The notes: generated by a model from the sequence alone, not told the origin. A stretch of 64,000 nt of DNA from Escherichia phage SP22 (LC519489.1), one strand, 5' to 3'. Shown: positions 3,657 through 30,778, numbered from the stretch's first letter. A program made the numbers and translations.

Positions 3657-4205
3657 ATGAAGAAATTGATTCTAGGTTTGTGCTTAATGTTTACAGCACA
3701 CTTATCTTATGCAGTTGACTGCCCAGAGCTATCAATTAGCCAAAAAGTGAACATGTTAAAAGCTTACCAGTATGGTGAGAATAACATGGGTAAAGGTTGG
3801 GGTATCACTCTAGCAGCTATAGCCTTACAAGAGTCAGAGTTAGGTCTGAAGGTAGAAAATAAAAAGACCCATGACTATGGTATCTTCCAGAATCACTTGA
3901 AGACTGTTGTAAAGCGTAACAAAATTAGTCCTAATGTTGCTAAAAAGAAACTCTTAAAAGATTTTGACTATGCTGCGAAGGAAACGCACAAAGAACTTGA
4001 GTTTTGGACAAAGGTGCATGGTCAGCCAAAGTCAAAGAAGACTTTACAAAAAGTTTTAGCATCATATAATGCTGGGTATTCGTACAGAATCCCTAAAGCT
4101 AAGAAGTATTCTCAAGATGTCTATAACAACATGAAAGTTATTGCTCAATGTGAATTTGCAACAAACATTTCTAAGGTAAACCATGAAAAAATTAAAAAAG
4201 TCTGA
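3657..4205 (+). CDS. secreted protein with lytic-transglycosylase-like (SLT/lysozyme-like) motif
   Basis: N-terminal signal peptide MKKLILGLCLMFTAHLSYA; QESELG...YGIFQ resembles the SLT catalytic-Glu region; SD aggag. Confidence 0.4.
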   Translation: MKKLILGLCLMFTAHLSYAVDCPELSISQKVNMLKAYQYGENNMGKGWGITLAAIALQESELGLKVENKKTHDYGIFQNHLKTVVKRNKISPNVAKKKLLKDFDYAAKETHKELEFWTKVHGQPKSKKTLQKVLASYNAGYSYRIPKAKKYSQDVYNNMKVIAQCEFATNISKVNHEKIKKV

Positions 4206-6927: not shown

Positions 6928-7713
6928 ATGGGTATTGTAAAAATAATCAATGGTGATATCTTTGCCGCATTTGATAAAGGTAAGTTTGACATCATCGGTC
7001 ACGGTTGCAACTGTATGAATTTAATGGGTGCAGGTATCGCTGACAAGATTTCTAAACTTTACCCAAAAGCATATGAGACCGATACAGAAGTTTATCTATA
7101 TGCAGGTGGTATAGGACACAAACCCTGTGAAAATTTACTGGGTAATTTCTCTGTAGCACGTTTAAAACAAGGTCGTATAGCTAACCTTTACACTCAGCTT
7201 AAGACTGGTAAAGATGCCCGATACAGTGCTTTAGAGTCATCTTTGAAACAGCTTAACAGATACTGTGAAGTTAATCAGTTGAGGAAAGTTGGTTTACCTA
7301 TGATTGGTGCAGGTATCGGTGGGTTGGACCCTCAAGCCGTCACAGTTATCATCAATCAGGTGATGAAGAGTGTAGATGTTTATCTATATGTCTATGAAGG
7401 AGAGATGTACCACAAGTTACGCTCAGGTTGGAATAACTACTGTGAACCAGAATACTTTGCAGGTGTAGTAACGTTCAAAGATGATACAGTTACCCTCTTC
7501 AGACGAAGAAAAGGTAAGATACATCAAAGTAACCCTCCGGTTGAGAAGATGTCTCTAAGTAACGCTCTAGTTACCCACCTGTCGAAGAGCAATCACAGGA
7601 TAGCCGTAACATTTGGCAGTGATGCAGATACATATATTTATGCAAGAACTGATGAGGATATCGAGACGGTCTTCTCTTCACCGGAAGTTACCTTCTTAGA
7701 CGCAAAGAACTAA
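6928..7713 (+). CDS. macro-domain-like protein (ADP-ribose binding/processing fold)
   Basis: INGDIF...DIIGHGCNCMNLMGAGIA and LPMIGAGIGGL resemble macro-domain Gly-rich motifs; 261 aa. Confidence 0.45.
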   Translation: MGIVKIINGDIFAAFDKGKFDIIGHGCNCMNLMGAGIADKISKLYPKAYETDTEVYLYAGGIGHKPCENLLGNFSVARLKQGRIANLYTQLKTGKDARYSALESSLKQLNRYCEVNQLRKVGLPMIGAGIGGLDPQAVTVIINQVMKSVDVYLYVYEGEMYHKLRSGWNNYCEPEYFAGVVTFKDDTVTLFRRRKGKIHQSNPPVEKMSLSNALVTHLSKSNHRIAVTFGSDADTYIYARTDEDIETVFSSPEVTFLDAKN

Positions 7714-7745
7714 GAAACTCTGTATAATATTCACAATAGACTAAG

Positions 7746-7790
7746 CCTTCCTTATCTGGTAAATTTTTCAGGTAAGGAGGGCTTTTTCAT
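7746..7790 (+). terminator. imperfect hairpin + U-run after macro-domain gene
   Basis: ccttcctta...taaggagg inverted repeat followed by gcttttt. Confidence 0.4.
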
Positions 7791-7964
7791 TTCAGGATTG
7801 TGCAGGTAGAGTTCTGTAGAGAAATCTGTAGAGAGAATTTTGAACTCCAAAGAGAAAATTCATTTTCAAACTGTGCAGGTAATCTCCAAAGAGCTTTTTC
7901 ATTTTCAAAAAGTGCACCCCGCCCAGGTCGGGCAAGAAAAATCATTTTAGAATTGTGCAGGTAG
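7783..7964 (+). repeat. four imperfect direct repeats, consensus TTTCATTTTCA-N5-TGTGCAGGTA (copies near 7783, 7856, 7895, 7937), followed by a C-rich tract 7985-8020
   Basis: read directly; the same CTTTTTCATTTCAGGA motif also sits upstream of the gene at 5407. Confidence 0.6.
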
Positions 7965-8139
7965 GTTTTTATGGAGAGCCATACCAACCCCTCTCCCCCT
8001 ATTACCCCCTCTCTCCCCAAAAGTCAAGAGAAAAATTTGTAGCGGATTGAAAAATAATTCTTGATTTGTGTTCTGTTTTGTGGTAGTCGTGTGCGCACGT
8101 TTCATTACAGTTTTTCCAAAAATATTTTTAAAATTTTTC

Positions 8140-8231
8140 TTGACTCTTTGAACGGGGTTATCTAGTATTTGCATCAACGGGGAGGGAATGACCTTCCCCA
8201 CTAAATAAAGTCCTAAACTGGAGATTCAAAA
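8140..8231 (+). promoter_or_regulatory. cassette type A copy 1: promoter (-35 ttgact 8140-8145, -10 tagtat 8163-8168) + stem-loop ggggagggaatgaccttcccc (8179-8199) + conserved leader ...cctaaactggagattcaaaa-ATG
   Basis: 17-bp spacing; hairpin and leader repeated 7 times in window. Confidence 0.65.
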
Positions 8232-8612
8232 ATGGCATACCGTGCACCTAAATTCATCAACAAAGACAACTTTCGCAACGCACTGGAGAAGTCACTTGAT
8301 GAGAATTTTAAAGGTAACGTTATTGTTGTTCACTCGTTCAATTTCAAGTATGATATTAACGGGAATAAAATCAACCATTACACGGCGACAATGCTAGATG
8401 GTACTCTTTCAAGTGAAAAAGCCATTTTACATGCACTTGCTGGACGTGGTAAAAACCTGATAAGATGCGATAAGAGACGTTATCAGGGTGGCGCATATGG
8501 TTACGATGATGCTGTTTATCATCTTGAAAATATGGGCTATCAAGTAGAAAAAGCTGGAGTGTCTCAAATAATCGGTAGTGATGGTTATGTAACAATCTTC
8601 AAAATTAACTGA
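8232..8612 (+). CDS. hypothetical protein (hyperplastic early region)
   Basis: ORF directly after conserved leader with GGAG SD. Confidence 0.55.
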   Translation: MAYRAPKFINKDNFRNALEKSLDENFKGNVIVVHSFNFKYDINGNKINHYTATMLDGTLSSEKAILHALAGRGKNLIRCDKRRYQGGAYGYDDAVYHLENMGYQVEKAGVSQIIGSDGYVTIFKIN

Positions 8613-8700
8613 TAAAGTACTTTACAAGGGGCTTATAGTTCGATAAAGTAAGCCCCAGATAAAGAGCTTTACCACTAAATCCTAAATTGGAGATTCAAAA
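8613..8700 (+). promoter_or_regulatory. cassette type B copy 1: hairpin ggggcttatagttcgataaagtaagcccc (8628-8656) + agataaagagctttaccactaaatcctaaattggagattcaaaa-ATG leader
   Basis: repeated 5 times with variable loop but conserved stem and leader. Confidence 0.6.
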
Positions 8701-8991
8701 ATGGCTACTATCAAAAACGTTGTAATTCCTGTAAAAACTCGTGATGACGCTCGCATCATGGCGAAAAAGTTAGGCGGGAAAGTGGTTGACAACGGAAAAC
8801 AATCTGCTGTAAGATGGGGTGTGAAGGCTGATAAACAGTTGAAGTTAAAAAATTCACCAAGAAATCTTTTTACATGTGTAAACACTATCGGAAAGACAAA
8901 TGTATACACGAAAAAGGCATATATTAGACGCGTAGCCTTAACATCTCCAATTCGTACAATGAGAGGTTATGCAAAGCTGAAAATTAGCTGA
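8701..8991 (+). CDS. hypothetical basic small protein
   Basis: ORF after type B cassette. Confidence 0.5.
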   Translation: MATIKNVVIPVKTRDDARIMAKKLGGKVVDNGKQSAVRWGVKADKQLKLKNSPRNLFTCVNTIGKTNVYTKKAYIRRVALTSPIRTMRGYAKLKIS

Positions 8992-9079
8992 TAAAGTACT
9001 TTACAAGGGGCTTAAAAGTTGGTATCTTAAGCCCCAGATAAAGAGCTTTACCACTCAATCCTAAACTGGAGATTCAAAA
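8992..9079 (+). promoter_or_regulatory. cassette type B copy 2 (hairpin 9007-9035)
   Basis: ggggcttaaaagttggtatcttaagcccc + conserved leader. Confidence 0.6.
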
Positions 9080-9376
9080 ATGAAATTATCAAATAAAGTT
9101 CGTGAAAATCTAAGCAAATTACTCAACAAAATTGATTTCATTGAAACATCAAGAAATAGCCATGATGTTATGGAATGGTTACACGGCAAAATAAAAGGTC
9201 GTCGTGTAGTGATTTGCTTATGGAATAGTTGCAGGGAGTATAAAAAACCTGTATTGCAAGTTAATATCTATGATGATACTCTTAAAAGTCCTGTCAAATC
9301 TAAAAGCGATTTACTAGATTCTTATGAGATAACTGTAAATGGCAAAGTATCACGTAAAGAGGAAGCACCATGTTAA
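9080..9376 (+). CDS. hypothetical protein
   Basis: ORF after cassette. Confidence 0.5.
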   Translation: MKLSNKVRENLSKLLNKIDFIETSRNSHDVMEWLHGKIKGRRVVICLWNSCREYKKPVLQVNIYDDTLKSPVKSKSDLLDSYEITVNGKVSRKEEAPC

Positions 9377-9702
9377 TGACTGGTATCACTGCAATCATTG
9401 CCATTTTCGCGCTCTATAAGGCATATAAAGCCTATAATCTAGCAAATAAGGCAATCACACAGCAGGTTAGCAATAACCTTGTAATGAGCTTTCTAGAGCG
9501 GTTGAGCGATGAACAATTAAAGCGGTTAGAAATGAGCTTCAGATTCAGGGCGAGAACTTATCAAATCAGCGACATTTTCAAAGATGATTTTCAATTAGTC
9601 GATGATTATAATTCTCTGATAAATGCTTTAAATATTAGTGACTTAAAAGACTATCATACTGTAATTGTTCAAGAGTTGAGCAAACGAAAACAAAACTGTT
9701 GA
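9370..9702 (+). CDS. hypothetical protein with N-terminal hydrophobic segment
   Basis: ORF with SD gagga, overlaps upstream stop; MLMTGITAIIAIFALY hydrophobic. Confidence 0.45.
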   Translation: MLMTGITAIIAIFALYKAYKAYNLANKAITQQVSNNLVMSFLERLSDEQLKRLEMSFRFRARTYQISDIFKDDFQLVDDYNSLINALNISDLKDYHTVIVQELSKRKQNC

Positions 9703-9791
9703 CACTGATTTTTAGATAGATTAAATTACACATCAACGGGGAGGCAATAAACACCCCACTAAATAAAGTCCTTAAACTAGGAGATTCTAAA
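9699..9791 (+). promoter_or_regulatory. cassette type A copy 2: -35 ttgaca 9699-9704, -10 taaatt 9722-9727, variant hairpin 9738-9757
   Basis: TTGACA-17-TAAATT then caacggggaggcaataaacacccc and conserved leader. Confidence 0.6.
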
Positions 9792-10064
9792 ATGTATACT
9801 ACTAACAACGGTCGCACTTTAAATGTCACTCTACGTCACTATGTAGACGGTGTGATGCACTTTGAGGATTTACAGGCTGAGCAACATATCTTAGATTGGC
9901 AAGTCGCAGGACTCCAAAAAACTGCTACCGGATACGGCAAAAAGATTCCAACTAGCTGGAAAGTATACTGTGAAGGACGTTTGCGCAGAATTTATCAGGA
10001 TGTATGTAGCAATAGCACATCAAGTTACATCATAGTAAAAGGTAAAAAACTGCATTTAGTATAA
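9792..10064 (+). CDS. hypothetical protein
   Basis: ORF after cassette. Confidence 0.5.
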   Translation: MYTTNNGRTLNVTLRHYVDGVMHFEDLQAEQHILDWQVAGLQKTATGYGKKIPTSWKVYCEGRLRRIYQDVCSNSTSSYIIVKGKKLHLV

Positions 10065-10149
10065 AGTACTTTACAGGGGGCTTATTAGTCTGTACAGTAA
10101 GCCCCAGATAAAGAGCTTTACCACTCAATCCTAAATTGGAGATTCTAAA
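10065..10149 (+). promoter_or_regulatory. cassette type B copy 3 (hairpin 10076-10105)
   Basis: gggggcttattagtctgtacagtaagcccc + leader. Confidence 0.6.
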
Positions 10150-10554
10150 ATGGCTATTAATAATCGTGAGTTGTCAATCTTAAAAGCACGTTTAACCGTT
10201 AATCGAATCAATGTTATTACATCATCAGCACCGGATGAAACATTGCACAACATTATCGGAAAGATTCAAAGCGTTATCTTAGACGTTGAAAACGTAAAAA
10301 ACTCATTGGCTGACGTTGCAGCAGGTATCACGCTAGACGGTGCACAATATGAAATGGTCGACATGTTAGGCAAATCTAAGGTAATGAATAAAGAGTTAGA
10401 CTTGAAAATGTTTAGATTTGCCGTGAAAGTGTGGCTATCTGTTGAGTATGATGCTAATTTTGCAATCGCTGATTTCTTTGCCACTTGGTTACAACGTAAT
10501 TTGGCAAATCATGACTTTCGTGACATCTGCGACGCAATTTATGCAGAACTCTAA
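10150..10554 (+). CDS. hypothetical protein
   Basis: ORF after cassette. Confidence 0.5.
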   Translation: MAINNRELSILKARLTVNRINVITSSAPDETLHNIIGKIQSVILDVENVKNSLADVAAGITLDGAQYEMVDMLGKSKVMNKELDLKMFRFAVKVWLSVEYDANFAIADFFATWLQRNLANHDFRDICDAIYAEL

Positions 10555-10562
10555 AAATTTTA

Positions 10563-10655
10563 TTGACACTGATTTTTAGATAGATTAAATTACACATCAA
10601 CGGGGAGGGAATGACCTTCCCCACTAAGTAAAGTCCTTAAACTAGGAGATTCAAA
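10563..10655 (+). promoter_or_regulatory. cassette type A copy 3: -35 ttgaca 10563-10568, -10 taaatt 10586-10591, hairpin 10602-10622
   Basis: identical architecture to copy 2. Confidence 0.65.
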
Positions 10656-10853
10656 ATGGCTATTATCAACGGTTTAACCATTGAAACCACGCACATCAAA
10701 GACATTAAAGTTGGTGATGTAGTTCTTTCCCACGGCGTAGAAAAAACAGTCACTGCAAAGGATATCAAAGATGATTCTTTCATGGGTAGAACTCTCTTCG
10801 GTGATTCTTATTGCTTAGGTTATCTTGCAGTTTTAAAAGTTGTCAAAAATTAA
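10656..10853 (+). CDS. hypothetical small protein
   Basis: ORF after cassette. Confidence 0.5.
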   Translation: MAIINGLTIETTHIKDIKVGDVVLSHGVEKTVTAKDIKDDSFMGRTLFGDSYCLGYLAVLKVVKN

Positions 10854-10856
10854 CTG

Positions 10857-10946
10857 ATAAAGTACTTTACAAGGGGCTTATAGTTCGATAAAGTAAGCCC
10901 CAGATAAAGAGCTTTACCACTAAATCCTTAAACTAGGAGATTCAAA
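10857..10946 (+). promoter_or_regulatory. cassette type B copy 4 (hairpin 10873-10901)
   Basis: near-identical to copy 1. Confidence 0.6.
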
Positions 10947-11489
10947 ATGAAATGCTTTCACGGTACTACTCAAGAAAACTTTATCAACCTGATTAATAAC
11001 GGTGATAAACCATCAGGTGTATGGAATTGTTCGGATATGGACGGCAATTTTTACGTGTACCCAGAAAATAAACTCTATGGTGATGATGAGGAAGAGATAG
11101 CATCGGAAGGTATCCAGCAAGCTCTAGGAAATGCCACTATCACGGCAGCTTTTCAGATGAAAACTCAAAATATTGTTATCTTAGAACTTGACATTCCAGA
11201 GGATGAGCTAAATGATGATTATTCTTGTGATAACATGTCAAATATAGCAAGCTTTACAGAGTACTTTGATGTAAATTGGATTAAAAAGGTCTATACAACA
11301 GAGTTCAATGCTATGTATTCACCTTTTTGTCTCCCTTCACTGGATAACCCAAATTTAAATTATCTTGATGAAACATTGGAGCTACTTGCTAAAAGTATCC
11401 AACAATCCGACAGTATTCAGGTTTTTTGTGACATCATGGATACACTGACAGAAAACATTGTAGAGAGTGATTTAAAGGTCTTTTTCTAA
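10947..11489 (+). CDS. hypothetical acidic protein
   Basis: ORF after cassette. Confidence 0.5.
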   Translation: MKCFHGTTQENFINLINNGDKPSGVWNCSDMDGNFYVYPENKLYGDDEEEIASEGIQQALGNATITAAFQMKTQNIVILELDIPEDELNDDYSCDNMSNIASFTEYFDVNWIKKVYTTEFNAMYSPFCLPSLDNPNLNYLDETLELLAKSIQQSDSIQVFCDIMDTLTENIVESDLKVFF

Positions 11490-11523
11490 AAACCTATACA
11501 TTCACCTTATAAACACTGATTAA

Positions 11524-11545
11524 CCCCTTACAGGGGCTTTTAGAG
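11524..11545 (+). terminator. hairpin ccccttacagggg + ctttt
   Basis: inverted repeat and T-run. Confidence 0.45.
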
Positions 11546-11555
11546 GGCTTAAATC

Positions 11556-11789
11556 ATGCTTACAACCATTTATCTCATCCTTTCCATTTGTAACGGCCAT
11601 TCATGTGACTTTAAAGGGCTTGAAGAGTTTACAGGAAGTAAAGAAAATGCTATTCAAGTTTGCCAGATAGCAAGACAAGACTACCCCGCCAGTGATGATA
11701 TACAATGTTACTTTAAGACAGAAGATGACGAAGGAATCTATTTCGACAGTGTCGATGGTCAATATGAAATTATCATTGAAAAAGACTAG
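11556..11789 (+). CDS. hypothetical small protein
   Basis: ORF track. Confidence 0.4.
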   Translation: MLTTIYLILSICNGHSCDFKGLEEFTGSKENAIQVCQIARQDYPASDDIQCYFKTEDDEGIYFDSVDGQYEIIIEKD

Positions 11790-11882
11790 ACAAGCCTGAT
11801 AAAAGTCTGTAAATTATCAATCAACGGGGAGGGAATGACCTTCCCCACTAAGTAAAGTCCTTAAACTAGGAGATTCCAAAAA
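11787..11882 (+). promoter_or_regulatory. cassette type A copy 4: -35-like tagaca 11787-11792, -10 taaatt 11810-11815, hairpin 11826-11846
   Basis: 17-bp spacing; hairpin and leader conserved. Confidence 0.55.
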
Positions 11883-12131
11883 ATGTATACTAAAACTCAA
11901 CTAAAAAACATGGTTAGCAATGGCTTAATGGATGAAGTCTATAAAGAGTGTAGACGCTACGGGGAAATTAAGGATAAGACTAGTTATGAGTATACCCACA
12001 CAATAGACTTTAAAACCAATGAGAAGAGGACTGACCTTGTTACTGTAATAGTGATTGAGTATAAACGAATTATTTGGACCTTTGAGCTAGTAAAAGGTGA
12101 GTGCACAGAGATAGAATATAAAGACGCTTAA
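11883..12131 (+). CDS. hypothetical small protein
   Basis: ORF after cassette. Confidence 0.5.
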   Translation: MYTKTQLKNMVSNGLMDEVYKECRRYGEIKDKTSYEYTHTIDFKTNEKRTDLVTVIVIEYKRIIWTFELVKGECTEIEYKDA

Positions 12132-12216
12132 AGTACTTTACATGGGGCTTATTAGTCTGTATAGTAAGCCCCAGATAAAGAGCTTTACCACTCAATCCTA
12201 AACTGGAGATTCTAAA
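12127..12216 (+). promoter_or_regulatory. cassette type B copy 5 (hairpin 12144-12172)
   Basis: ggggcttattagtctgtatagtaagcccc + leader. Confidence 0.6.
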
Positions 12217-12558
12217 ATGGCTTATGTAACCGTAATTACCGATAAAGCTGGCTCATCTTGGTCAACTCAAGTAAGTGATAAGATGTCACCTATGCAGTGC
12301 CTAAAATACTTTGAACAGTGGAACAAAGGCGAGGATGTAAGCCCCTTTCAAGTGATGCAAATCATCCATACAGATAACGAAGGGAACAAAACGACCTTGA
12401 ACAGTGAATACTACGCAAGCCGTTTTGAAACGAGAAGTAAAACAATGAAGCTTTTACGTGAATCCGGTTATGCACATATTGCCGCGTTAATCTGGGATGA
12501 CCTGCTAAAAAGTCAGCGTATCAGCTATGTAAAGCCTGAAAAAATCTTCATAAGTTAA
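12217..12558 (+). CDS. hypothetical protein
   Basis: ORF after cassette. Confidence 0.5.
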   Translation: MAYVTVITDKAGSSWSTQVSDKMSPMQCLKYFEQWNKGEDVSPFQVMQIIHTDNEGNKTTLNSEYYASRFETRSKTMKLLRESGYAHIAALIWDDLLKSQRISYVKPEKIFIS

Positions 12559-12590
12559 TCAATAACTTACAAAAAACTTTTAAAAAAGTG

Positions 12591-12619
12591 TTGACAATAC
12601 CCATTGACATTGGTAACTT
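12591..12619 (+). promoter_or_regulatory. sigma70-like promoter candidate (ttgaca 12591-12596, taactt 12614-12619)
   Basis: hexamers with 17-bp spacing. Confidence 0.35.
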
Positions 12620-12686
12620 TGTTCGAGGGGGTTATCTAAAAGGGATTCACTTAATAGATTCTTTATAGATAAACTTAAAAAATTGC

Positions 12687-12779
12687 TTGCAAAGGCAAAT
12701 CAAAACAAGTATAGTACTAATCAACGGGGAGGGAATGACCTTCCCCACTAAGTAAAGTCCTTAAACTAGGAGATTCAAA
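12687..12779 (+). promoter_or_regulatory. cassette type A copy 5: -35 ttgcaa 12687-12692, -10 tatagt 12710-12715, hairpin 12726-12746
   Basis: 17-bp spacing, conserved hairpin and leader. Confidence 0.6.
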
Positions 12780-13310
12780 ATGAACAAGTTTCAAGCTATC
12801 AACTACATTCGCTCATCTAACGTTATGACTAAACCCGTTAAAGATACCTTCGAATTTCGTTGCAACGGTGTACACTTTGCAACTATCACTAAATCAGAAA
12901 ACGGGGCTTATTATATACATCGTCGTAATGTTTCTACTGTTGTAGTATCTCACTTTATGCAAGCTGTAGCAGAACTGTTACCGTTATTCTTAGGTATTTA
13001 CTTAGATGAGTGTAAAAACGTTCGCAACCACGTTAAAGACCTTTTAAATAGTTATAAAATGGCTTATGAACGTTCTATCAAGAATCTTAACAAGTTCTAT
13101 AAAGCTCCTGAAAACACCGTATCAATAGCTTATGATGTAAGCGGTGAAATGGTCAACCTCTCCAATGTAGAACAAATTTGCCTTTATGATTTACGTCCTA
13201 GCGGTTATTCTAAGACTCTCGGTGAAGGCTTATCCTTCAATATCAAGAACTTAGAAAAAACTTTAAAAGATATTGAAAAAGATATTGACGAGACAATCAA
13301 AAGTCTGTAA
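12780..13310 (+). CDS. hypothetical protein
   Basis: ORF after cassette. Confidence 0.5.
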   Translation: MNKFQAINYIRSSNVMTKPVKDTFEFRCNGVHFATITKSENGAYYIHRRNVSTVVVSHFMQAVAELLPLFLGIYLDECKNVRNHVKDLLNSYKMAYERSIKNLNKFYKAPENTVSIAYDVSGEMVNLSNVEQICLYDLRPSGYSKTLGEGLSFNIKNLEKTLKDIEKDIDETIKSL

Positions 13311-13377
13311 ATTGTCAATCAACGGGGAGGGATTAACCTTCCCACTAAGTAAAGTCCTTAAACTAGGAGATTCAAAA
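13285..13377 (+). promoter_or_regulatory. cassette type A copy 6: -35 ttgacg 13285-13290, -10 taaatt 13308-13313, variant hairpin 13324-13343
   Basis: promoter embedded in 3' end of upstream ORF. Confidence 0.55.
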
Positions 13378-13641
13378 ATGGAACACGTAGAATTAACCAC
13401 ACTATTGCAGATTGCAACTAACAAAGAAGACGTAGCGTTGTTTCACCGTATCGAAAGTGATTTGTTCAATGGTGAAATCATTAAAGAATCTTACGAAGTT
13501 GTCGGATTCAAAGATGGTAAAGCATTTGGCTTTTTTGACCTCGACAAAAGCAAAGCGGTTACAATGTACGATGTTCTATCTTGTGAAATTCTGACAAAAT
13601 ACAACGAAAAAAGGCTTGCAACCTACGCCAATATGCAGTAA
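13378..13641 (+). CDS. hypothetical small protein (start set at ATG after conserved leader; track ORF 13273 is an artefactual upstream extension)
   Basis: MEHVELT start directly follows ggagattcaaaa. Confidence 0.5.
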   Translation: MEHVELTTLLQIATNKEDVALFHRIESDLFNGEIIKESYEVVGFKDGKAFGFFDLDKSKAVTMYDVLSCEILTKYNEKRLATYANMQ

Positions 13642-13708
13642 ATTACTAATCAACGGGGAGGGAATGACCTTCCCACTAAACAAAGTCCTAAACTGGAGAA
13701 TCTAAATT
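13616..13708 (+). promoter_or_regulatory. cassette type A copy 7: -35 ttgcaa 13616-13621, -10 taaatt 13639-13644, hairpin 13654-13673
   Basis: 17-bp spacing, conserved hairpin. Confidence 0.55.
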
Positions 13709-13957
13709 ATGTCAACTATCCGCGTAACTGTTAATGCTTATGGCTGCCACAAACTTGATGCAAAATTCGATATCGGTGGAACAGATAACACCTTTGACCT
13801 TATCAAAATGCTGATTCAGCAGGTGATACCAGATTATAACCCTACTGATGACTTCTGGAAAGATGCCGTAAAAGAAGCCATAAACGAGGAATCTCACTAC
13901 CATTATTGGGGTGACTTGATTGTCTCTCTATACTACAGCAAACAAGGCTACAACTAA
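13709..13957 (+). CDS. hypothetical small protein
   Basis: ORF after cassette. Confidence 0.5.
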   Translation: MSTIRVTVNAYGCHKLDAKFDIGGTDNTFDLIKMLIQQVIPDYNPTDDFWKDAVKEAINEESHYHYWGDLIVSLYYSKQGYN

Positions 13958-13965
13958 TCGACGCA

Positions 13966-14019
13966 ACGGGGCTAAATAGCCCCAGATACCTTTACAGCCC
14001 CTTAAATGGGGCTTTTTTA
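13966..14019 (+). terminator. tandem hairpins (ggggctaaatagcccc; gccccttaaatggggc + tttttt) ending the + strand early block
   Basis: inverted repeats and U-run. Confidence 0.65.
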
Positions 14020-14029: not shown

Positions 14030-15560
14030 ATCCTTATACAATCCCTTTCCTTTCCTTTCCAGAATCTTATCAGACCTTAAAAGCAATAACTCTATAGTCT
14101 ACTCTATAACCTTTTATCAAATCAACTTAAATATAAGCCCATAACCCGAAAGGGAAGGGCAACCCCTTAAACGCTCTATAACGCTCTATAACAGCCTTAT
14201 CAACCTAACTTAAGCAATCATATTAACCCACTCTAAAAAGCCCTTTATAGAGCTTCCCAGAGCCTTAGAAGAATCTTATAAGGGTGTAAGCTTTATCATC
14301 TCGTTAGTATTCTTGTGAACTACTAAAAAGGGCTTGGTAGTTCCTTTAAAGTATGTTATAGGGGCTATAAAGTTACTCAAAAGTTACGTAAATGCTAGCC
14401 CCCTTAACATTTTCTTAACAATTTCTTAACAAACCCTACATAGTTATGCTTGTTAGAGACTTGTTAGCCTCTTGTTAAATCTCTGTTAAGACCACGTAAA
14501 AGCCTTGTAAGAACCTTTGACATAGCCTTTAAAGCCCCTGTAAAGCCCTATAAAGAGGTATCTGTACAGTTGGGGTGTAATTACTAGGAAGAGGCTTAAA
14601 AGGGCTTACAAGGAGCTATAGAGAGCTTTTAAGAGGTATGTTTAGAGAATCACTAAGAAAGAGAGGGAACGATAAGAAAAGAGATAGTGACCTTGTTAAC
14701 AGCTTGTTAAAAAGATTAAACACTTGTTAGAAACTTGTTAATTATCTTAACAAAATAACTCTTAAAAATTAACTTGTTAGCTCTTGTTAGTCATCTGTTA
14801 AGCATCTGTAAAGACTATTCAGCACTTGTTAAGAAACTGTTAAGCTCTTGTTAGTTCTGTTAAGAATCTGTTAAGACCTTTGAAGAGTTGTTAAGAAGAT
14901 GTGAGAACTGTTAAGAGATTGTTAAGGATATTTTAAAATTTTGCAAAGGGGGTGTTACAGGGATGTTAAGGGCTACCAAGCAGATATACATCTTCTACAG
15001 ATATTTTTCAGTTCCTTCAAAGACCCTAAAAATGACTTGACAGTCCTATTTTATAAAAATTTTAAAATTCTGAATAATTACCTAGACAGTCTTTTAAAAA
15101 TACAGGCATAAACAGGCTTATAAGATACCTTGTTAGTACCGTGTTAGACCTTGTGAGATAAGGTCTGTAAAGATATTCCTGTTAAGTTTGTTAAAACAGT
15201 CTATATAGAGGCTTAGTAATACCTAGTGAACACCTATAGAGGGTATCATAGCTGACATAATGGGTTACTGTTAAGTAACACAGGTAACCTAGAGATTAAG
15301 AGGTGTATAGGAGCTTCTAAGAGGGTGTAGAGGTATGGTTAAGGTGATTGTATAGGTTGTTAAGAAGGCTTGTTAGAAGAGTGTTTAGAAGGGCTATACA
15401 GAGGGGCTATTAAGACCACTAGATAGTTACTAAGATACTATATAGTACTATATAACTATATATAGAGAGTAAGATTAAGAAGGTTGTTAAGAAGGATAGA
15501 TATTTTATTCACATATGATGGTGACCCATAGGTTGGGACAACCGATAAAATTTTATAAAA
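14030..15560. repeat. ORF-free 1.5-kb region with dense short dispersed repeats, consensus (C)TTGTTA(A/G) or CTGTTAAG, in both orientations (25 or more copies, densest 14400-14930)
   Basis: no ORF of 60 aa or more in any frame; motif counted by eye; flanked by convergent terminators. Confidence 0.7.
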
Positions 15561-26668: not shown

Positions 26669-26815
26669 ATTATCTTTGTAGATAAGTTATTAAGCTTACC
26701 TGTGAGTATGCGACCACAAAGGGTGAAATGGTAAATTCTAGATTTAAACCCAACAATGCACATCGCTACAGACCTTAAGCAAGTCTGGGTAGCTTATCTA
26801 CAAAGATAATTTAAT

Positions 26816-26891
26816 GGAAGTGTAGCAGAATGGTGATGCGGCAGACTTTTAATCTGACAGGCGATGGGTTCGAATCCCTCCACTTCTACCA
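26816..26891 (+). tRNA. tRNA-Lys (anticodon TTT)
   Basis: acceptor ggaagtg/cacttct, anticodon loop cttttaa, T-loop ttcgaat, CCA. Confidence 0.65.
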
Positions 26892-26895
26892 ATAT

Positions 26896-26972
26896 GGTTC
26901 AGTCGCAGATAAGGTAATGCAGGGGTTTCATAAGCCCTATGAATGTGGGTTCGATTCCCATCTGAACCTCCA
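26896..26972 (+). tRNA. tRNA with anticodon CAT (elongator Met or Ile-lysidine type)
   Basis: acceptor ggttcag/ctgaacc, anticodon stem ggggt/gccct loop ttcataa, T-loop ttcgatt, CCA. Confidence 0.6.
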
Positions 26973-26973
26973 A

Positions 26974-27049
26974 GCTGGTATAGTTAAGAAGGTTATAACA
27001 CTCCCCTGATAAGGGAACATCGGTGGTTCGATTCCACCTACCAGTACCA
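26974..27049 (+). tRNA. tRNA-Ile (anticodon GAT)
   Basis: acceptor gctggta/taccagt, anticodon loop ctgataa, T-arm ggtgg-ttcgatt-ccacc, CCA. Confidence 0.65.
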
Positions 27050-27064
27050 ATTTCAATAAAGTTG

Positions 27065-27093
27065 TTGACATTGAGATGTGACTACTTTATAGT
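27065..27093 (+). promoter_or_regulatory. sigma70-like promoter (ttgaca 27065-27070, 17 bp, tatagt 27088-27093)
   Basis: consensus hexamers with 17-bp spacer. Confidence 0.55.
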
Positions 27094-27099
27094 AACTGA

Positions 27100-27387
27100 A
27101 AATGATTCAGCATATGTATAATTCAAACACCAATACATGAGCGTTAGACGTAACACAATGTGGGGAAATTTGTTGTACATATTCTGAATAGTTTTCGTTG
27201 CGTAGCGTCTATTTTGCAAATTTAAAATAAATGCAAACGACAATGTTTTTCTGGCAGTAGCTTGATAGGCTAAACACCAGTGAGGTCTTCCAATCCCTCA
27301 TCAAAGAATTTGGCGTACTCGCCCACGGTATGATTAATAAGGTGGGCATCTTTAAGGGCTTTCTAAGAGAGTCTTTAAAGATAATTA
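27100..27387 (+). ncRNA. candidate non-coding transcript downstream of the promoter and upstream of the atypical tRNA-like gene
   Basis: about 290 nt with no ORF of 60 aa or more in any frame, inside the tRNA cluster. Confidence 0.25.
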
Positions 27388-27469
27388 CGGGGCGTATCTC
27401 AGCGGTCTTCTAAACCGCCGTTAACCGAGTAAGTGGAGTATGCGGGTTCGAGTCCTGCCGCCTCGACCA
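27388..27469 (+). tRNA. atypical tRNA-like gene: canonical T-arm and acceptor with CCA, anticodon-like hairpin gcggt-cTTCTaa-accgc (TCT, Arg-type), no canonical D-arm, 23-nt extra region
   Basis: acceptor cggggcg/cgcctcg, T-arm gcggg-ttcgagt-cctgc; only 7 nt between acceptor and hairpin. Confidence 0.4.
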
Positions 27470-27483
27470 ATTTTGGAGAAATC

Positions 27484-27831
27484 ATGAAAACTTGTATTAG
27501 GTGCAAACTTAGCAAGGATGAAAATGATTTCTACATGAAAGATGGTAAGAGAACTCATTCATACTGTAAAAAGTGTGTTAATGAGCAAACCATAGAAAGA
27601 CAAAGAGCACTTAAACTTTCAGCTATTGAGTACAAAGGTGGGGTTTGTCATGATTGTGGTAAAAGGTATCATCCAGCAGTGTATGACTTCCATCATTTGA
27701 ATCCTTCAGAGAAAGATTTTAACATTGGTCATAGAAAAAGTCTGAAGTTCTCTCAAGAACTAAAAGATGAACTTGACAAATGTGTTTTGCTATGTTCAAA
27801 TTGCCATAGGGTAAGACATGCAAAGTATTAG
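27484..27831 (+). CDS. HNH homing endonuclease (paralog of 29214-29627)
   Basis: CxxC...CHDCG...HHLNP...CSNCHRVRH motifs; start set at ATG after SD ggag (track ORF 27433 overlaps the tRNA-like gene). Confidence 0.7.
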   Translation: MKTCIRCKLSKDENDFYMKDGKRTHSYCKKCVNEQTIERQRALKLSAIEYKGGVCHDCGKRYHPAVYDFHHLNPSEKDFNIGHRKSLKFSQELKDELDKCVLLCSNCHRVRHAKY

Positions 27832-27968
27832 TTAGCAGATTGCTTAGACGACCTTATCGGGTCTCCGTGTAAGGAGGTGGTCTGTATCTCATGTTTTCCA
27901 GAACATGTAAATAATCTGAGAAGGGGCTTTACAGTGTTGCGAAAATACGGTAAGCTTCGAATTACAAT

Positions 27969-28051
27969 ATGGGACGATGTTAAGACTCTAAGGCATGAGC
28001 AACGGCCTCCAAAACCGTTTCAAAGGGGTTCAACTCCTCCGTCCCATGCCA
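27969..28051 (+). tRNA. non-canonical tRNA-like element or pseudo-tRNA
   Basis: perfect acceptor atgggac/gtcccat-g-cca and T-loop ttcaact, but anticodon hairpin aacgg-cctccaaaa-ccgtt has a 9-nt loop and there is an about 8-nt insertion before the D-stem. Confidence 0.3.
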
Positions 28052-28064
28052 AAGTCTTATTAGG

Positions 28065-28154
28065 GGTAGGTAGCGGCTAATGGCAGCCAAACAGTCTTGA
28101 AAACTGTTGCCACTGTAGAGATACGGTGAGGGTTCGACTCCTTTACTTACCGCC
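28065..28154 (+). tRNA. tRNA-Ser (anticodon TGA), class II
   Basis: acceptor ggtaggt/acttacc, anticodon stem acagt/actgt loop cttgaaa, long variable arm, T-loop ttcgact. Confidence 0.65.
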
Positions 28155-28422
28155 TAATAAGATTTATACCGTCCATGCTTGCTCGCATTTTCGGTTTATC
28201 CTCGTGTATTGGTTGTACACACTGATAAAGCACCTAGTAGGTGTCACGGAGAAGAGATAATATCAAGCTCTCCAAAGGTTCTAGTCACCGGATTAAACAA
28301 GACTATGCAAAGACCAAATTAGGTCTTTTTAGAGGGCTTCTAAGGTTATTACAGCTTGTTGTGGAACCTTGTTGCTTAGGTTCTTAGAAGTTCTCTAAAA
28401 AGATTTAATGGGAGATTGACAC

Positions 28423-28875
28423 ATGGCACGTAGCAGTTTGACTAAAGATATTCTTGAACCTTTAGTAAAGGATTCAGTATCATTCAGAGAAGTACTTATT
28501 AAGCTTGGGAGAAAACCAGCAGGTGGTTCTCAGTCACATCTAAAGCGTGTTATAGAGAAGTTTGAAATAGACACTTCTCATTTCCTCGGACAAAAGGCTG
28601 GTAAGGTTAAAACTGTACCAAAAAGAAAGCCTGAAGAAATACTAATTCTGCGTGAATCTGGTGAAAGAGCTAGGTCTTCACAACTAAGAAGAGCTTTAAT
28701 AGCCTCTGGTGTCGAATACAAATGCTCTAAATGTGGTCAGTTACCGTATTGGTTGGGTAACCCTCTAACTCTTGATGTTGACCACATTAACGAGAACTGG
28801 TTAGATGATAGAAAAGAGAATCTTCGGTTCTTGTGTCCAAATTGCCACAGTCAATTCTCAAGACATTTGATTTAA
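28423..28875 (+). CDS. HNH homing endonuclease
   Basis: YKCSKCG...DHINENWLDDRKENLRFLCPNCH motif; SD gggag. Confidence 0.65.
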   Translation: MARSSLTKDILEPLVKDSVSFREVLIKLGRKPAGGSQSHLKRVIEKFEIDTSHFLGQKAGKVKTVPKRKPEEILILRESGERARSSQLRRALIASGVEYKCSKCGQLPYWLGNPLTLDVDHINENWLDDRKENLRFLCPNCHSQFSRHLI

Positions 28876-28876
28876 T

Positions 28877-28953
28877 GCACCTATAGCCCAACTGGTAGAG
28901 GCAGCAGACTTAGAATCTGCTCAGTGTGAGTTCGAATCTCTCTAGGTGTACCA
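28877..28953 (+). tRNA. tRNA with anticodon TAG (Leu-type anticodon) but short variable arm
   Basis: acceptor gcaccta/taggtgt-a-cca, anticodon stem gcaga/tctgc loop cttagaa, T-loop ttcgaat. Confidence 0.55.
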
Positions 28954-28960
28954 AATTAAT

Positions 28961-29036
28961 GCAGGTGTAGCAAAATGGTTATGCGGCTGACTCTTAATCA
29001 GTAAGACGATGGGTTCAATTCCCTCCACCTGTACCA
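28961..29036 (+). tRNA. tRNA-Lys (anticodon CTT), paralog of the TTT tRNA
   Basis: acceptor gcaggtg/cacctgt, anticodon loop ctcttaa, T-loop ttcaatt, CCA. Confidence 0.6.
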
Positions 29037-29042
29037 AACATT

Positions 29043-29118
29043 GGGGATGTAGTTTACATGGTTAAAACATAAGTTTTGCAAACTTAAGTACAGGGTTCAA
29101 TTCCCTGCTTCTCCACCA
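29043..29118 (+). tRNA. tRNA-Ala (anticodon TGC)
   Basis: anticodon stem taagt/actta loop tttgcaa, T-arm caggg-ttcaatt-ccctg, CCA. Confidence 0.6.
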
Positions 29119-29124
29119 ATTAGT

Positions 29125-29199
29125 GCATCCATAGTTTAAACGGGAAAATTACAGTCTTCCAAACTGAGGTTGAGGGTTCGATTCCCTCTGGATGCTCCA
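29125..29199 (+). tRNA. tRNA-Gly (anticodon TCC)
   Basis: acceptor gcatcca/tggatgc, anticodon loop cttccaa, T-arm gaggg-ttcgatt-ccctc, CCA. Confidence 0.65.
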
Positions 29200-29213
29200 A
29201 ATTAAGGTGTGAT

Positions 29214-29627
29214 ATGAAAATATGTAGTACTTGCAGAATACCAAAAGATGAAAGCTTATTCCATAAGAATAAGAACAAGAAAGATGGTCTTCAAAGTCAA
29301 TGCAAAGACTGTGCAAGACTTCGTGATGCAAAGAGTTATCAAGCAAATGATAAAAGGAAAGAGGCTATCAAAAGCACTCGTAACTTCAAGAGGGAGTATA
29401 ATAAAACTCTAGCTAGAAGGTACAAAGCTTTATGCAAATGTCATATATGTGGTGAGAAAGAACCAGCTGCACTGGATTTACACCATACAGACCCTTCCCA
29501 GAAAGATTTGAATCCTGCATCACTTTATTCATACTCCACAAAAAGATTAAAAGATGAAATCAGAAAGTGTATCGTCTTGTGTGCTAACTGTCACAGAAAA
29601 GTACACGCTGGTATCATACAAGTTTAA
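29214..29627 (+). CDS. HNH homing endonuclease (paralog of 27484-27831)
   Basis: CSTCR...CKDC...CHICG...HHTDPS...CANCHRKVH. Confidence 0.7.
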   Translation: MKICSTCRIPKDESLFHKNKNKKDGLQSQCKDCARLRDAKSYQANDKRKEAIKSTRNFKREYNKTLARRYKALCKCHICGEKEPAALDLHHTDPSQKDLNPASLYSYSTKRLKDEIRKCIVLCANCHRKVHAGIIQV

Positions 29628-29628
29628 T

Positions 29629-29705
29629 GCTGCTTTCGTATAATTGGCTATTACACATCCCTTGTAAGGATGGAAATGCAGGTTCGAGTCCTGTGAGCAG
29701 CACCA
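29629..29705 (+). tRNA. tRNA-Thr (anticodon TGT)
   Basis: acceptor gctgctt/gagcagc, anticodon stem catcc/ggatg loop cttgtaa, T-loop ttcgagt, CCA. Confidence 0.7.
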
Positions 29706-29801
29706 ATTTAGAGGTCAAGTGAAAGACCGCTTTGAGTCAACTGAAGACCGTAACAAATCCCACGGAGTTGAGTTAGCGGCACAACTTCAGACCTCTTTCA
29801 T
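29706..29801 (+). ncRNA. structured intergenic element with nested inverted repeats between tRNA-Thr and tRNA-Val
   Basis: gaggtc...gacctc, ctgaag...cttcag and ccgt...acgg inverted repeats; contains the gaagaccgt motif. Confidence 0.3.
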
Positions 29802-29876
29802 ACTCGCTTAGTTTATATGGTAAAACATCACCCTTACAAGATGAAGAAAAAGGTTCAAGTCCTTTAGTGAGTACCA
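29802..29876 (+). tRNA. tRNA-Val (anticodon TAC)
   Basis: acceptor actcgct/agtgagt, D-stem gttt/aaac, anticodon loop cttacaa, T-arm aaagg-ttcaagt-ccttt, CCA. Confidence 0.6.
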
Positions 29877-29877
29877 T

Positions 29878-29955
29878 GTTCCAGTATCCCAATTGGCAGA
29901 GGATGCAAGCTCAAACCTTGTACTAGTGACGGTTCGAATCCGTCTTGGAACACCA
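29878..29955 (+). tRNA. tRNA with anticodon CAA (Leu-type anticodon), short variable arm
   Basis: acceptor gttccag/ttggaac, anticodon stem gcaag/cttgt loop ctcaaac, T-arm gacgg-ttcgaat-ccgtc, CCA. Confidence 0.55.
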
Positions 29956-29960
29956 ATTTT

Positions 29961-30036
29961 GCAGGATTAGTTCAAATGGATAGAGCAACAGTCTACGAAG
30001 CTGTTAATAGGGGTTCGAATCCCTTATCCTGCGCCA
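29961..30036 (+). tRNA. tRNA-Arg (anticodon ACG)
   Basis: perfect acceptor gcaggat/atcctgc, D-stem gttc/gagc, anticodon stem acagt/gctgt loop ctacgaa, T-loop ttcgaat, CCA. Confidence 0.75.
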
Positions 30037-30055
30037 ATTTAAAGAGGCTATTTAG

Positions 30056-30613: not shown

Positions 30614-30621
30614 AGATTTAA

Positions 30622-30697
30622 AGGGGATTAGTTTACAAGGTTAAAACCTCGGTCTTTGAAATCGAAGAAGTTGGTTCAATTCCAACATCCCCCGCCA
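30622..30697 (+). tRNA. tRNA-Gln (anticodon TTG)
   Basis: anticodon stem tcggt/atcga loop ctttgaa, D-stem gttt/aaac, T-arm gttgg-ttcaatt-ccaac, CCA; A1:C72 unpaired. Confidence 0.6.
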
Positions 30698-30699
30698 AT

Positions 30700-30778
30700 G
30701 CTCCATTACTCCAATTGGCAGAGAGGCCAGACTTAAAATCTGTGTTATGTATCGGTTCGAATCCGATATGGAGTACCA
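30700..30778 (+). tRNA. tRNA with anticodon TAA (Leu-type anticodon), short variable arm
   Basis: acceptor gctccat/atggagt, anticodon loop cttaaaa, T-arm atcgg-ttcgaat-ccgat, CCA. Confidence 0.55.

Follow-up and report, generated by a model that had tools for sequence, protein, structure and literature searches.

Two families of promoter–hairpin–leader cassettes repeated ahead of small genes in a Felix O1-like phage

The locus studied here raises the question of what two families of repeated intergenic elements do for the small genes that they precede, and for the exchange of such genes between phages. The window, i.e. the whole stretch of 64 000 nucleotides that was analyzed, was 99.5% identical to Escherichia phage wV8 (Felixounavirus), and the source phage is a Felix O1-like member of the Ounavirinae (Felixounavirus), not a phage of the T4 type, for which the first-pass annotation had cited such cassettes. 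Its claim of two repeated elements, with seven copies of Type A and five of Type B, was borne out by pattern searches, which found all copies on the + strand and none elsewhere in the 64 kb. The Type B core AAGCCCCAGATAAAGAGCTTTACCACT was found without mismatches at 8650, 9029, 10099, 10895 and 12166 (0 expected by chance), and the Type A core CAACGGGGAGG...CCC at 8175, 9734, 10598, 11822, 12722, 13320 and 13651 (0.02 expected by chance). A repeat finder recovered both families, and in wV8 all 5 + 7 cassette places fell inside the corresponding array. The array holds 14 small genes, of which 12 have an upstream cassette; the notion that every gene has one thus failed for g4 and g9. The features were as follows.

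7743–7784, + strand: intrinsic terminator at the left array boundary, stem of 17 pairs with a T-run after it, also a terminator in the wV8 annotation
8140–8231, + strand: Type A cassette A1, TTGACT-17-TAGTAT, hairpin 8179–8199, leader and SD
8232–8612, + strand: g1, 126 aa, phrog_4495
8610–8700, + strand: Type B cassette B1, TTTACA (8621)-17-TAAAGT, core hairpin 8628–8656, extended helix 8610–8674, leader and SD
8701–8991, + strand: g2, 96 aa, phrog_5089
8989–9079, + strand: Type B cassette B2, TTTACA (9000)-17-TATCTT, TG extended −10
9080–9376, + strand: g3, 98 aa, phrog_4401
9370–9702, + strand: g4, 110 aa, phrog_4375, overlaps g3, no cassette of its own
9699–9791, + strand: Type A cassette A2, TTGACA-17-TAAATT, degenerate hairpin 9738–9757, −35 overlapping the g4 stop codon
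9792–10064, + strand: g5, 90 aa, phrog_3436
10062–10149, + strand: Type B cassette B3, TTTACA (10070)-17-TACAGT
10150–10554, + strand: g6, 134 aa, phrog_4327
10563–10655, + strand: Type A cassette A3, TTGACA-17-TAAATT, hairpin 10602–10622
10656–10853, + strand: g7, 65 aa, phrog_3623
10851–10946, + strand: Type B cassette B4, TTTACA (10866)-17-TAAAGT, about 97% identical to B1
10947–11489, + strand: g8, 180 aa, phrog_3303, predicted ADP-ribosyltransferase fold
11524–11541, + strand: terminator-like small hairpin CCCCT-TAC-AGGGG (stem-loop 11524–11536), then CTTTT, between g8 and g9
11556–11789, + strand: g9, 77 aa, phrog_4640, no cassette, hairpin 11524–11536 upstream
11787–11882, + strand: Type A cassette A4, TAGACA-17-TAAATT, hairpin 11826–11846
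11883–12131, + strand: g10, 82 aa, phrog_23636
12129–12216, + strand: Type B cassette B5, TTTACA (12137)-17-TATAGT
12217–12558, + strand: g11, 113 aa, phrog_4318
12687–12779, + strand: Type A cassette A5, TTGCAA-17-TATAGT, hairpin 12726–12746
12780–13310, + strand: g12, 176 aa, phrog_4725
13285–13377, + strand: Type A cassette A6, TTGACG-17-TAAATT, promoter motif within the g12 3′ end, hairpin 13324–13342
13378–13641, + strand: g13, 87 aa, phrog_7022
13614–13708, + strand: Type A cassette A7, TTGCAA-17-TAAATT, within the g13 3′ end, hairpin 13655–13673
13709–13957, + strand: g14, 82 aa, phrog_4559
13996–14013, + strand: intrinsic terminator at the right array boundary, 6-pair stem, then TTTTTT

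The left terminator closes an upstream operon, after a macro-domain gene, and the start of g13 has here been corrected to 13378. The hairpin at 11524–11541 is a terminator by the wV8 annotation, yet it failed the T-run rule.

Both cassette types share one 5′ leader, CCT(T)AAACT(A)GGAG followed after about 8 nt by ATG. The distance from the −35 element to ATG was 80–81 nt in Type B and 92–96 nt in Type A, with the upstream stop codon either 6–13 nt ahead of the −35 or overlapping it. All 12 cassettes had a −35/−10 pair with a 17-nt spacer and a fixed distance to the hairpin, and by consensus match both types would carry an active host sigma70-type promoter. This agreed with the earlier description of Type A as a sigma70-like promoter with 17-nt spacing, a hairpin and a common leader. 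Type B, in turn, had been described as a bare variable-loop hairpin; it is better read as a predicted promoter itself, with the −10 lying inside the supposed variable loop. Among related phages the Type A spacer was 17 nt in all of 72 distinct copies (with a search pattern that permitted 16–18 nt), and of 61 distinct Type B cores, taken from about 50 related loci, 60 had TAnnnT 17–18 nt after TTTACA, the chance of TAnnnT at one position after TTTACA being about 0.02. Every position of the Type B loop was free save T1 and A2 (49/51) and T6 (48/51), and an extended −10 TG was present in 35 of the 61 cores. The 20 nt upstream of the −35 had an AT content of 77%, versus 61% window-wide. A generic promoter scan recovered five of five Type B and six of seven Type A promoters, albeit with a high background of 31 sites found versus 20 expected.

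With regards to timing, the literature yielded no transcriptome paper on any Felix O1-like phage. An RT-PCR table for Felix O1, where the cassette repeats were placed in the span of ORFs 15–21, has ORFs 16, 20, 21 and 22 maximal at 5 min, whereas ORFs 14, 17, 19 and 23 peaked at 25 min and not at 5 min (PMC3185647). The latter numbers lie in or adjoin the cassette-repeat stretch and count against an early-array reading. Taking the evidence together, we consider it likely that the region consists of single-gene cassettes for early expression, arrayed between two true terminators, with promoter, hairpin and leader forming composite elements. The cassettes probably drive expression, and they certainly mark the sites at which gene content differs among relatives.

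The Type A hairpin, with a stem of 8 bp, began 10 nt after the −10 in 63 and 11 nt after it in 9 of the 72 copies, rather than at about 8 nt as first stated, which places it at about +3/+4 of its own predicted transcript. The uniform hairpin ascribed to Type A was seen in most copies of the window, but that of A2 was degenerate and the stems of A6 and A7 had each lost one C. At least 10 different Type A stem sequences occupied the same position across genera. Some cassettes of Mooglevirus and Suspvirus had only a short 4-bp hairpin or none at all, and the hairpin is therefore not essential. It may act as a 5′-terminal stem-loop protecting the mRNA, and would also stand at the 3′ side of read-through RNA from the preceding gene.

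For Type B, the core stem was 97.5% paired, compared with 17–63% when the register was slid, and showed GC to UA compensation, with register-exact counting giving T-A/A-T flips at pairs 7 and 8. Using 128 distinct copies, RNAalifold predicted outer, middle and core helices; the outer and middle segments were 98.4% paired, with none of 1000 shuffles as good, and folding z-scores of the five copies in the window were −3.5 to −5.3. One outer pair changed from G-C to U-A in 15 copies, although such counts overstate the independent covariation events, since the copies are related by descent and gene conversion; this linked change could in part reflect cassette subtypes inherited as units. Of the 128 copies, 60 had a U·G wobble at a core pair and 115 had one at an outer pair; read from the opposite strand these positions would be mismatched, and the structures are hence specific to the + strand. 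Both hairpin types were + strand-specific, with many G·U pairs, and covarying. Rfam covariance models run over 7600–15 600 gave a single chance-level match (E = 0.48).

The Type B promoter (TTTACA-17-TAnnnT) would be buried within the hairpin, with RNA predicted to start at the A of AGATAAAG. As this start is just 3′ of the core stem, the element would be present only in read-through RNA from upstream, which by in silico folding forms a covarying helix of 5 + 5 + 8–9 bp. These three segments would make up a helix of about 20 bp enclosing the promoter, and this helix may insulate neighboring messages through RNase III-type processing, attenuation or both.

The hairpins could instead be terminators or attenuators, as proposed for the PeSL (promoter-early-stem-loop) cassettes of T4-type phages, which would stop RNA polymerase arriving from the preceding gene and make each gene an isolated transcription unit. 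The elements lie between genes and have GC-rich 8–9-bp stems, and a Type B hairpin upstream of its own predicted start is the order expected of a terminator followed by a promoter. A PeSL stem-loop of phage RB49 furthermore lowered lacZ expression to nearly the same degree as did the rrnB T1 terminator, and RB49 stem-loops, often likewise without U-tracts, terminated well in that reporter assay (PMC2839356). By the T-run rule, however, a U-tract followed none of the 12 cassette hairpins but was present at both 7743–7784 and 13996–14013, and a terminating Type A hairpin, which follows its own promoter, would stop its own transcript. A metagenomic phage contig of the same cassette design, moreover, had repeated hairpins with classic T-runs, thus displaying how a cassette selected as a terminator looks. 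We regard termination as possible but rather unlikely. Still less probable, in our view, is that the inverted repeats act as DNA, being cruciforms, targets of a site-specific recombinase or protein-binding sites such as a pair of repressor operators, TAAAG-NN-CTTTA, on either side of the Type B promoter. It is true that TAAAGTACTTTA, a perfect palindrome of 12 bp, overlaps the −35, that TAAAGAGCTTTA lies at about +3 to +15, and that the PeSL authors speculated on a recombination protein binding GGGG...CCCC. These palindromes were nevertheless broken in variant cassettes (TAGATTTCTTTA, TAAAGAGATTTA), where pairing is kept between the left half upstream and the right half downstream, partly by G·U. 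They were also lacking in Type A cassettes, the frequent wobble pairs make the structures strand-specific, and the 14 proteins yielded neither a recombinase nor a DNA-binding domain.

Turning from RNA structure to gene exchange, the link to gene shuffling that had been suggested was upheld: in comparisons with Felix O1, VpaE1, UAB_Phi87, KhF3, Mordin, HP1 and SUSP2, every block boundary and every indel or replacement breakpoint lay inside a cassette. Gene families were gained or lost singly. The gene g10 was missing from 10 of 10 other phages compared, and with cassette B5 it forms an insertion having leader repeats at both edges; g13 was variably present, with Type A cassettes as indel edges; and relatives carried an unrelated 82-aa gene in the slot of g7. 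Cassette types also switched between A and B from phage to phage in gene families 8 and 18. The cassette of g1 is Type A in this phage but Type B in Mooglevirus, Suspvirus and KhF3, and that of g11 is Type B here but Type A in Felix O1, VpaE1 and UAB_Phi87. The cassettes, as had been anticipated, were conserved as units in related genomes (about 250–290 phage records); their mosaic similarity does not track orthology of the flanking genes. The matches listed were by organism name Escherichia, Salmonella, Shigella, Citrobacter, Erwinia and Felixounavirus phages together with three oddly named records, with neither T4-like phages nor any relative outside the Ounavirinae detected among them; every one of the cassette-bearing records for which taxonomy was fetched belonged to this subfamily.

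Being 80–96 bp long and near-identical while flanking unrelated genes, the cassettes serve as portable homology, and recombination from one cassette to another is the likely origin of the A/B swaps among relatives and of the genes gained, lost or replaced there. Regular spacing and high identity of the copies might also be expected of remnants from tandem duplication of one ancestral gene with its upstream region, without any role in shuffling. But the 14 proteins belong to 14 different PHROG families and showed no BLAST links among themselves, cassette types swap before the same gene, and cassette similarity cuts across orthology, leaving this explanation very improbable indeed.

A broader and doubtful proposal, which we put forward tentatively, would make Type B a dual-use stretch of 65 nt, serving as a host promoter in DNA and as a covarying processing helix of about 20 bp in read-through RNA. 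Together with the 5′-capped Type A leader it would give each of the array genes a context-independent message, the two types providing two mRNA fates (structured or open 5′ end), and the repeats would constitute a platform for capturing genes without an integrase, next to the genome terminus, throughout the Ounavirinae. If true, this would be a natural ‘insulated expression cassette’.

The Ounavirinae array extends PeSL-like cassette systems to a second phage subfamily; in the Felix O1-like group its cassettes had previously been recorded merely as direct repeats. As the first-pass annotation had proposed, promoter, AT-rich upstream tract, stem-loop and SD/ATG fit the definition published for T4-like phages (Arbiol et al. 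2010, PMC2839356; Comeau et al. 2014, PMC4122927). Common to both systems are the 17-nt spacer of a sigma70-type promoter, the G-run/C-run stem-loop, clustering among small non-essential early genes and breakpoints of close relatives within cassettes. The PeSL definition allows five stem-loop positions, and the subclasses matched here were those with the stem-loop between or over −35/−10 (Type B, whose stem spans spacer and −10) and just past the −10 (Type A); the T4/PST promoter consensus, TTTACW-N17-TAYWAT, resembles that of Type B. The likeness is one of layout; terminator activity, and mini-circles formed by cassette-to-cassette recombination, are features of the T4-phage PeSLs. Differences are the Ounavirinae genome without detectable homology to RB49, T4 or KVP40 PeSL sequences, one array next to the genome end instead of several hyperplastic regions, a leader common to all Ounavirinae cassettes, and the extension of the Type B stem into a covarying helix of about 20 bp enclosing the whole promoter. 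Gene order is also largely kept across genera, which makes the region less ‘hyperplastic’ than PeSL regions.

RNase III acts on RNA duplexes some two helical turns long, in which internal loops are common, and in phage T7 its sites lie between early genes and adjoin several T7 promoters; the early-gene processing sites were reportedly described by Dunn and Studier in 1983. By its predicted fold Type B resembles them as an intergenic, irregular helix of some 20 bp, interrupted by internal loops and lying just 5′ of the SD, and processing, if it occurs, would likewise turn polycistronic RNA into uniform single-gene messages with a 3′ hairpin. Unlike the T7 sites, the Type B helix encloses a host-type promoter and its cleavage is putative; the comparison is limited to Type B, since a stem of 8 bp, as in Type A, is too short. 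Type A rather recalls the stabilizing stem-loop of the ompA 5′ UTR, said to have been reported by Emory, Bouvet and Belasco in 1992, in that it would lie, as such stem-loops do, within a few nucleotides of the primary 5′ end, here about 3 nt from a predicted start; its position is kept while its sequence varies between genera. Like morons and integron cassettes, these are single genes carrying or receiving their own expression signals, gained or lost as units, but morons lack the conserved flanking homology seen here, and integrons need an integrase and attC sites, with no integrase found among the proteins of the array.

As for the genes themselves, the 14 had been called ORFans, a label at odds with their membership in PHROG families and with an array synteny that holds across Ounavirinae genera. 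The accompanying statement that they lack recognizable domains stood for Pfam, which gave none in the 14 proteins, but not for g8, which is by prediction an ADP-ribosyltransferase-fold protein, the superfamily being marked by a conserved H...Y...acidic triad. It belongs to a family of at least 276 clusters, with H5-G6-T7 near-invariant and Y36 invariant.

The array under study, 14 small genes (g1-g14) at 8232-13957, was filled by + strand ORFs, and a pattern search recovered 5 Type B and 7 Type A cassette cores on the + strand, where the first-pass annotation had placed them and at no other site in the 64 kb, against a chance expectation of 0 to 0.02. In Type A the -35 and -10 elements are followed by a hairpin and a leader, and in Type B the predicted promoter lies inside the hairpin, again followed by a leader. 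The same two repeat families were recovered by a repeat finder. A cassette had been claimed for every gene, which held for 12 of the 14, with g4 and g9 as the exceptions. The phage is not a T4-type and belongs to Felixounavirus (subfamily Ounavirinae); 8100-14000 showed 99.5% identity with Escherichia phage wV8 and several O157 typing phages, all of that genus. The cassette sequences are already marked as DR_1 to DR_9 in the wV8 GenBank record, and repeats of 57 bp (Type B) and 39 bp (Type A promoter) appear, uninterpreted, in the published description of the Felix O1 genome (PMC3185647). The features of the array and its surroundings were as follows.

6928-7713: macro-domain gene directly upstream of the array (Pfam PF01661, E = 1.7e-7; phrog_335 'phosphatase')
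7743-7784: true terminator, upstream side of the array
9370-9702, + strand: g4, overlapping g3
11556-11789, + strand: g9, preceded by a small hairpin without a promoter
13996-14013: true terminator, downstream side of the array
25634-31973, + strand: 25 tRNA genes in one cluster, an expected feature of Felix O1-like phages

Each of the seven Type A copies combined a -35-like hexamer with a TAnnnT box across a 17-nt spacer, and all five Type B copies had TTTACA followed after 17 nt by TAAAGT, TATCTT, TACAGT, TAAAGT or TATAGT, with each of the five also being reported by a generic promoter scan. What the first-pass annotation had described as the variable loop of the Type B hairpin is the site of this predicted -10. 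Further copies were gathered from 11 annotated relatives and from 41 IMG/VR fragments, the IMG/VR pattern scan giving only Felix O1-like genome fragments, usable for variant counts and not for synteny. TAnnnT was found at 17 or 18 nt past TTTACA in 60 of 61 distinct Type B cores (per-position chance about 0.02), 35 of which 61 also carried a TG extended -10. The fixed loop positions were the T and A of the -10 (49/51 cores each) and its final T (48/51), with the other positions varying freely. The Type A spacer was 17 nt in all 72 distinct copies recovered, using a search pattern that allowed 16-18 nt, and AT content in the 20 nt upstream of the -35 was 77%, versus 61% for the window. Both cassette types are thus predicted consensus-type host promoters. 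The predicted Type B transcription start is the A of AGATAAAG, 7-8 nt past the -10 and just 3' of the core stem, so that the complete element would be present only in read-through RNA.

The central (core) stem of Type B (GGGGCUUA/UAAGCCCC) had 97.5% of its cells paired, compared with 17-63% when the partner was slid by 1-3 columns, with G-C to U-A compensation in Erwinia-phage copies and T-A/A-T flips at pairs 7 and 8 in a register-exact count. When the five window copies were folded as read-through RNA, the stem was extended by the flanking elements UAAAGU..CUUUA and UAAAG..GCUUUA (z = -3.5 to -5.3), and RNAalifold independently predicted the three helices from 128 distinct Type B copies. The outer and middle segments were 98.4% paired, which was matched by none of 1000 shuffles, and one outer pair changed from G-C to U-A in 15 of the 128 copies. 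U·G wobbles occurred in 60/128 copies at one core pair and in 115/128 at one outer pair, with reverse mismatches being rare, which indicates that the structure is specific to the + strand and points to sense RNA rather than to a DNA cruciform. An operator-pair reading of TAAAG-NN-CTTTA was downgraded to a rival, since variants break each palindrome yet the upstream and downstream elements still pair.

The Type A hairpin began 10 nt past the -10 in 63 copies and 11 nt past it in 9, corresponding to about +3/+4 of the predicted transcript. At least 10 different stems were found at this same position across genera, including GGGGAGGG..CCUUCCCC, GGGGC..GCCCC, GGGC..GCCC, GGGA..UCCC and GGGAAG..CUUCCCC, and this retention of position while the sequence changes argues for a structural role at the RNA 5' end. 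No Rfam family matched the cassettes.

Host RNA polymerase would, as we infer, start at each cassette early in infection. In Felix O1, where the Type A and Type B repeats are placed between genes 15 and 21, RT-PCR showed ORFs 16, 20, 21 and 22 to be maximal at 5 min, and ORFs 14, 17, 19 and 23, within or beside the repeat stretch, peaked at 25 min (PMC3185647). The Type A hairpin would then protect the mRNA 5' end, a tentative proposal with not quite an even chance of being right, and the Type B helix could separate or attenuate read-through RNA, perhaps by serving as a substrate of RNase III, a role that we consider less likely still. The model favored by the authors who described the promoter-early stem-loop (PeSL) cassettes of T4-like phages, in which the hairpins are terminators, is a live rival to both roles; however, none of the cassette hairpins was followed by a T-run, unlike the true terminators flanking the array.

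The cassette leaders came in two forms (for example at 8211-8225 and 10636-10652), with CCT-AAAYT-GGAG occurring 259 times, CCTT-AAACT-AGGAG 122 times and mixed forms not at all. This hints at a small hairpin covering the SD (UCC(U)-loop-(A)GGA), in which the additional T and A of the longer form would contribute one U-A pair, but the two sites are only 6 nt apart and simple linkage accounts equally well for the lack of mixed forms. In Erwinia phages this position is occupied by CCUU-AUA-AAGG. As GGAG, a target of RegB, forms the SD in every cassette and relatives call the gene after rIIB 'T4 RegB-like', targeting of the cassettes by RegB was considered; this idea was rejected, with Pfam giving no RegB match for the window copy (3657-4205) and only a sub-threshold SLT (lysozyme-like) match. 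Judged by these matches, the public annotation of 3657-4205 as a 'T4 RegB-like endoribonuclease' looks unsafe.

Gene order was largely kept in Felixounavirus, Mooglevirus and Suspvirus and partly in Kolesnikvirus, and all 14 array proteins fell in PHROG families of unknown function, so the earlier label of ORFans did not survive. The region was also less chaotic than the term 'hyperplastic' suggests. Phages differed from one another by single-gene indels and replacements. Upon comparison of gene content with seven related phages (Felix O1, VpaE1, UAB_Phi87, KhF3, Mordin, HP1 and SUSP2), every alignment block boundary lay inside a cassette. For example, g10 together with cassette B5 formed an insertion between two leader copies, and g13 formed an indel with a Type A cassette at either end. 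Gene families 8 and 18 were preceded by Type A or by Type B depending on the phage, and the nearest relative of a cassette often preceded a different gene, in the same or another phage. Breakpoints in cassettes together with cassette swapping is the pattern reported for PeSLs (PMC2839356), and the genes were likely moved by homologous recombination between cassettes. Tandem gene duplication was rejected, the array proteins being unrelated to one another.

As units the cassettes were conserved in related genomes, being found in 249-288 phage records, where a genome carried about 4-5 copies of each type. Going by organism names, the records were from Escherichia, Salmonella, Shigella, Citrobacter, Erwinia and Felixounavirus phages, apart from three with odd names, and all cassette records whose taxonomy was fetched belonged to Ounavirinae. 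MG065664.1 (labelled Campylobacter phage A132) and one Staphylococcus-labelled record contained Ounavirinae cassettes, and both entries are probably mislabelled or contaminated.

Every sequence-testable feature of PeSLs was found in the array, except that it neither lies in a T4-like genome nor is related to PeSLs in sequence. In function the array is a PeSL-like system, and by descent, as judged from sequence, it is independent of PeSLs or highly diverged from them. Our literature search found neither the PeSL concept applied to Felix O1-like phages, nor PeSLs outside T4-like phages, nor a Felixounavirus transcriptome. The metagenomic phage-like contig JBMFGG010001156.1 (1-6618) encodes a distant homologue of g8 and has one gene per repeated cassette, with its small genes flanked by a repeated classic U-tract terminator (AAGAGGCCTAGAGCCTCTTTTTT), a promoter (TTGCAT..TGGTGTATAAT) and a leader. 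The layout is thus alike, whereas the array cassettes lack the U-tract terminators, and its presence in this unrelated lineage makes the general cassette design a widespread one. The most original feature of the system is the Type B element with its promoter inside a helix.

Felix O1-like phages are widely used for typing and biocontrol. Published work describes their early transcription and its timing as unexplained, with no phage RNA polymerase or known modifier of host RNA polymerase (PMC3185647, PMC4690856), and control of early transcription was called unanswered in the VpaE1 paper. Twelve predicted consensus-type host promoters in one array would give a concrete, testable account of immediate-early expression. 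The PeSL idea, that recombination between repeated cassettes swaps small accessory genes, is also carried beyond T4-like phages. The genomes, which number more than 250 and together contain several hundred distinct copies of the cassettes, suit a study of promoter and hairpin co-evolution, and as expression parts the cassettes are compact and standardised.

The array proteins had been said to lack recognisable domains, which agreed with the absence of Pfam matches in all 14 and probably did not hold for g8 (10947-11489), which has a predicted ADP-ribosyltransferase fold. Neither the single g8 sequence nor an 80-sequence profile gave a significant match among PDB chains. The macro-domain protein encoded directly upstream of the array may act as an ADP-ribose partner of g8 or as its antagonist, and this neighbor lends limited support, for one gene, to the earlier guess of host takeover or anti-defence. 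The array products, including the putative ADP-ribosyltransferase-fold protein, form a defined list of candidates for such factors.

Three stretches in or beside the array were also noted. The stretch 7787-8020, which lies after the upstream terminator and before the first cassette, contains a 33-36 nt repeat (TCATTTTCAnAnTGTGCAGGTA...) in four copies spaced about 40 nt, followed by a polypyrimidine run (CCCCTCTCCCCCTATTACCCCCTCTCTCCCC); a 54-aa GTG-start ORF is annotated at its counterpart in wV8. Just after the array, the gene-free stretch of about 1.5 kb at 14400-15500 is densely filled with CTTGTTAAG/CTGTTAAG repeats, spaced by about 11 and about 31 nt, with inverted copies too (TTCTTAACAA). 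It aligns to the terminal repeat annotated in Citrobacter phage HP1 and probably represents the end of the genome (direct terminal repeat), perhaps also an origin or packaging site. The 128-nt spacer at 12559-12686, without an ORF, has an extra strong promoter-like site read by eye (TTGACA at 12593, about 17 nt, TAACTT) that is absent from the promoter scan listing. In Mordin, a 46-aa ORF (Mordin_111) is annotated between the g11 and g12 counterparts. The spacer could represent a decayed cassette or encode a small RNA.
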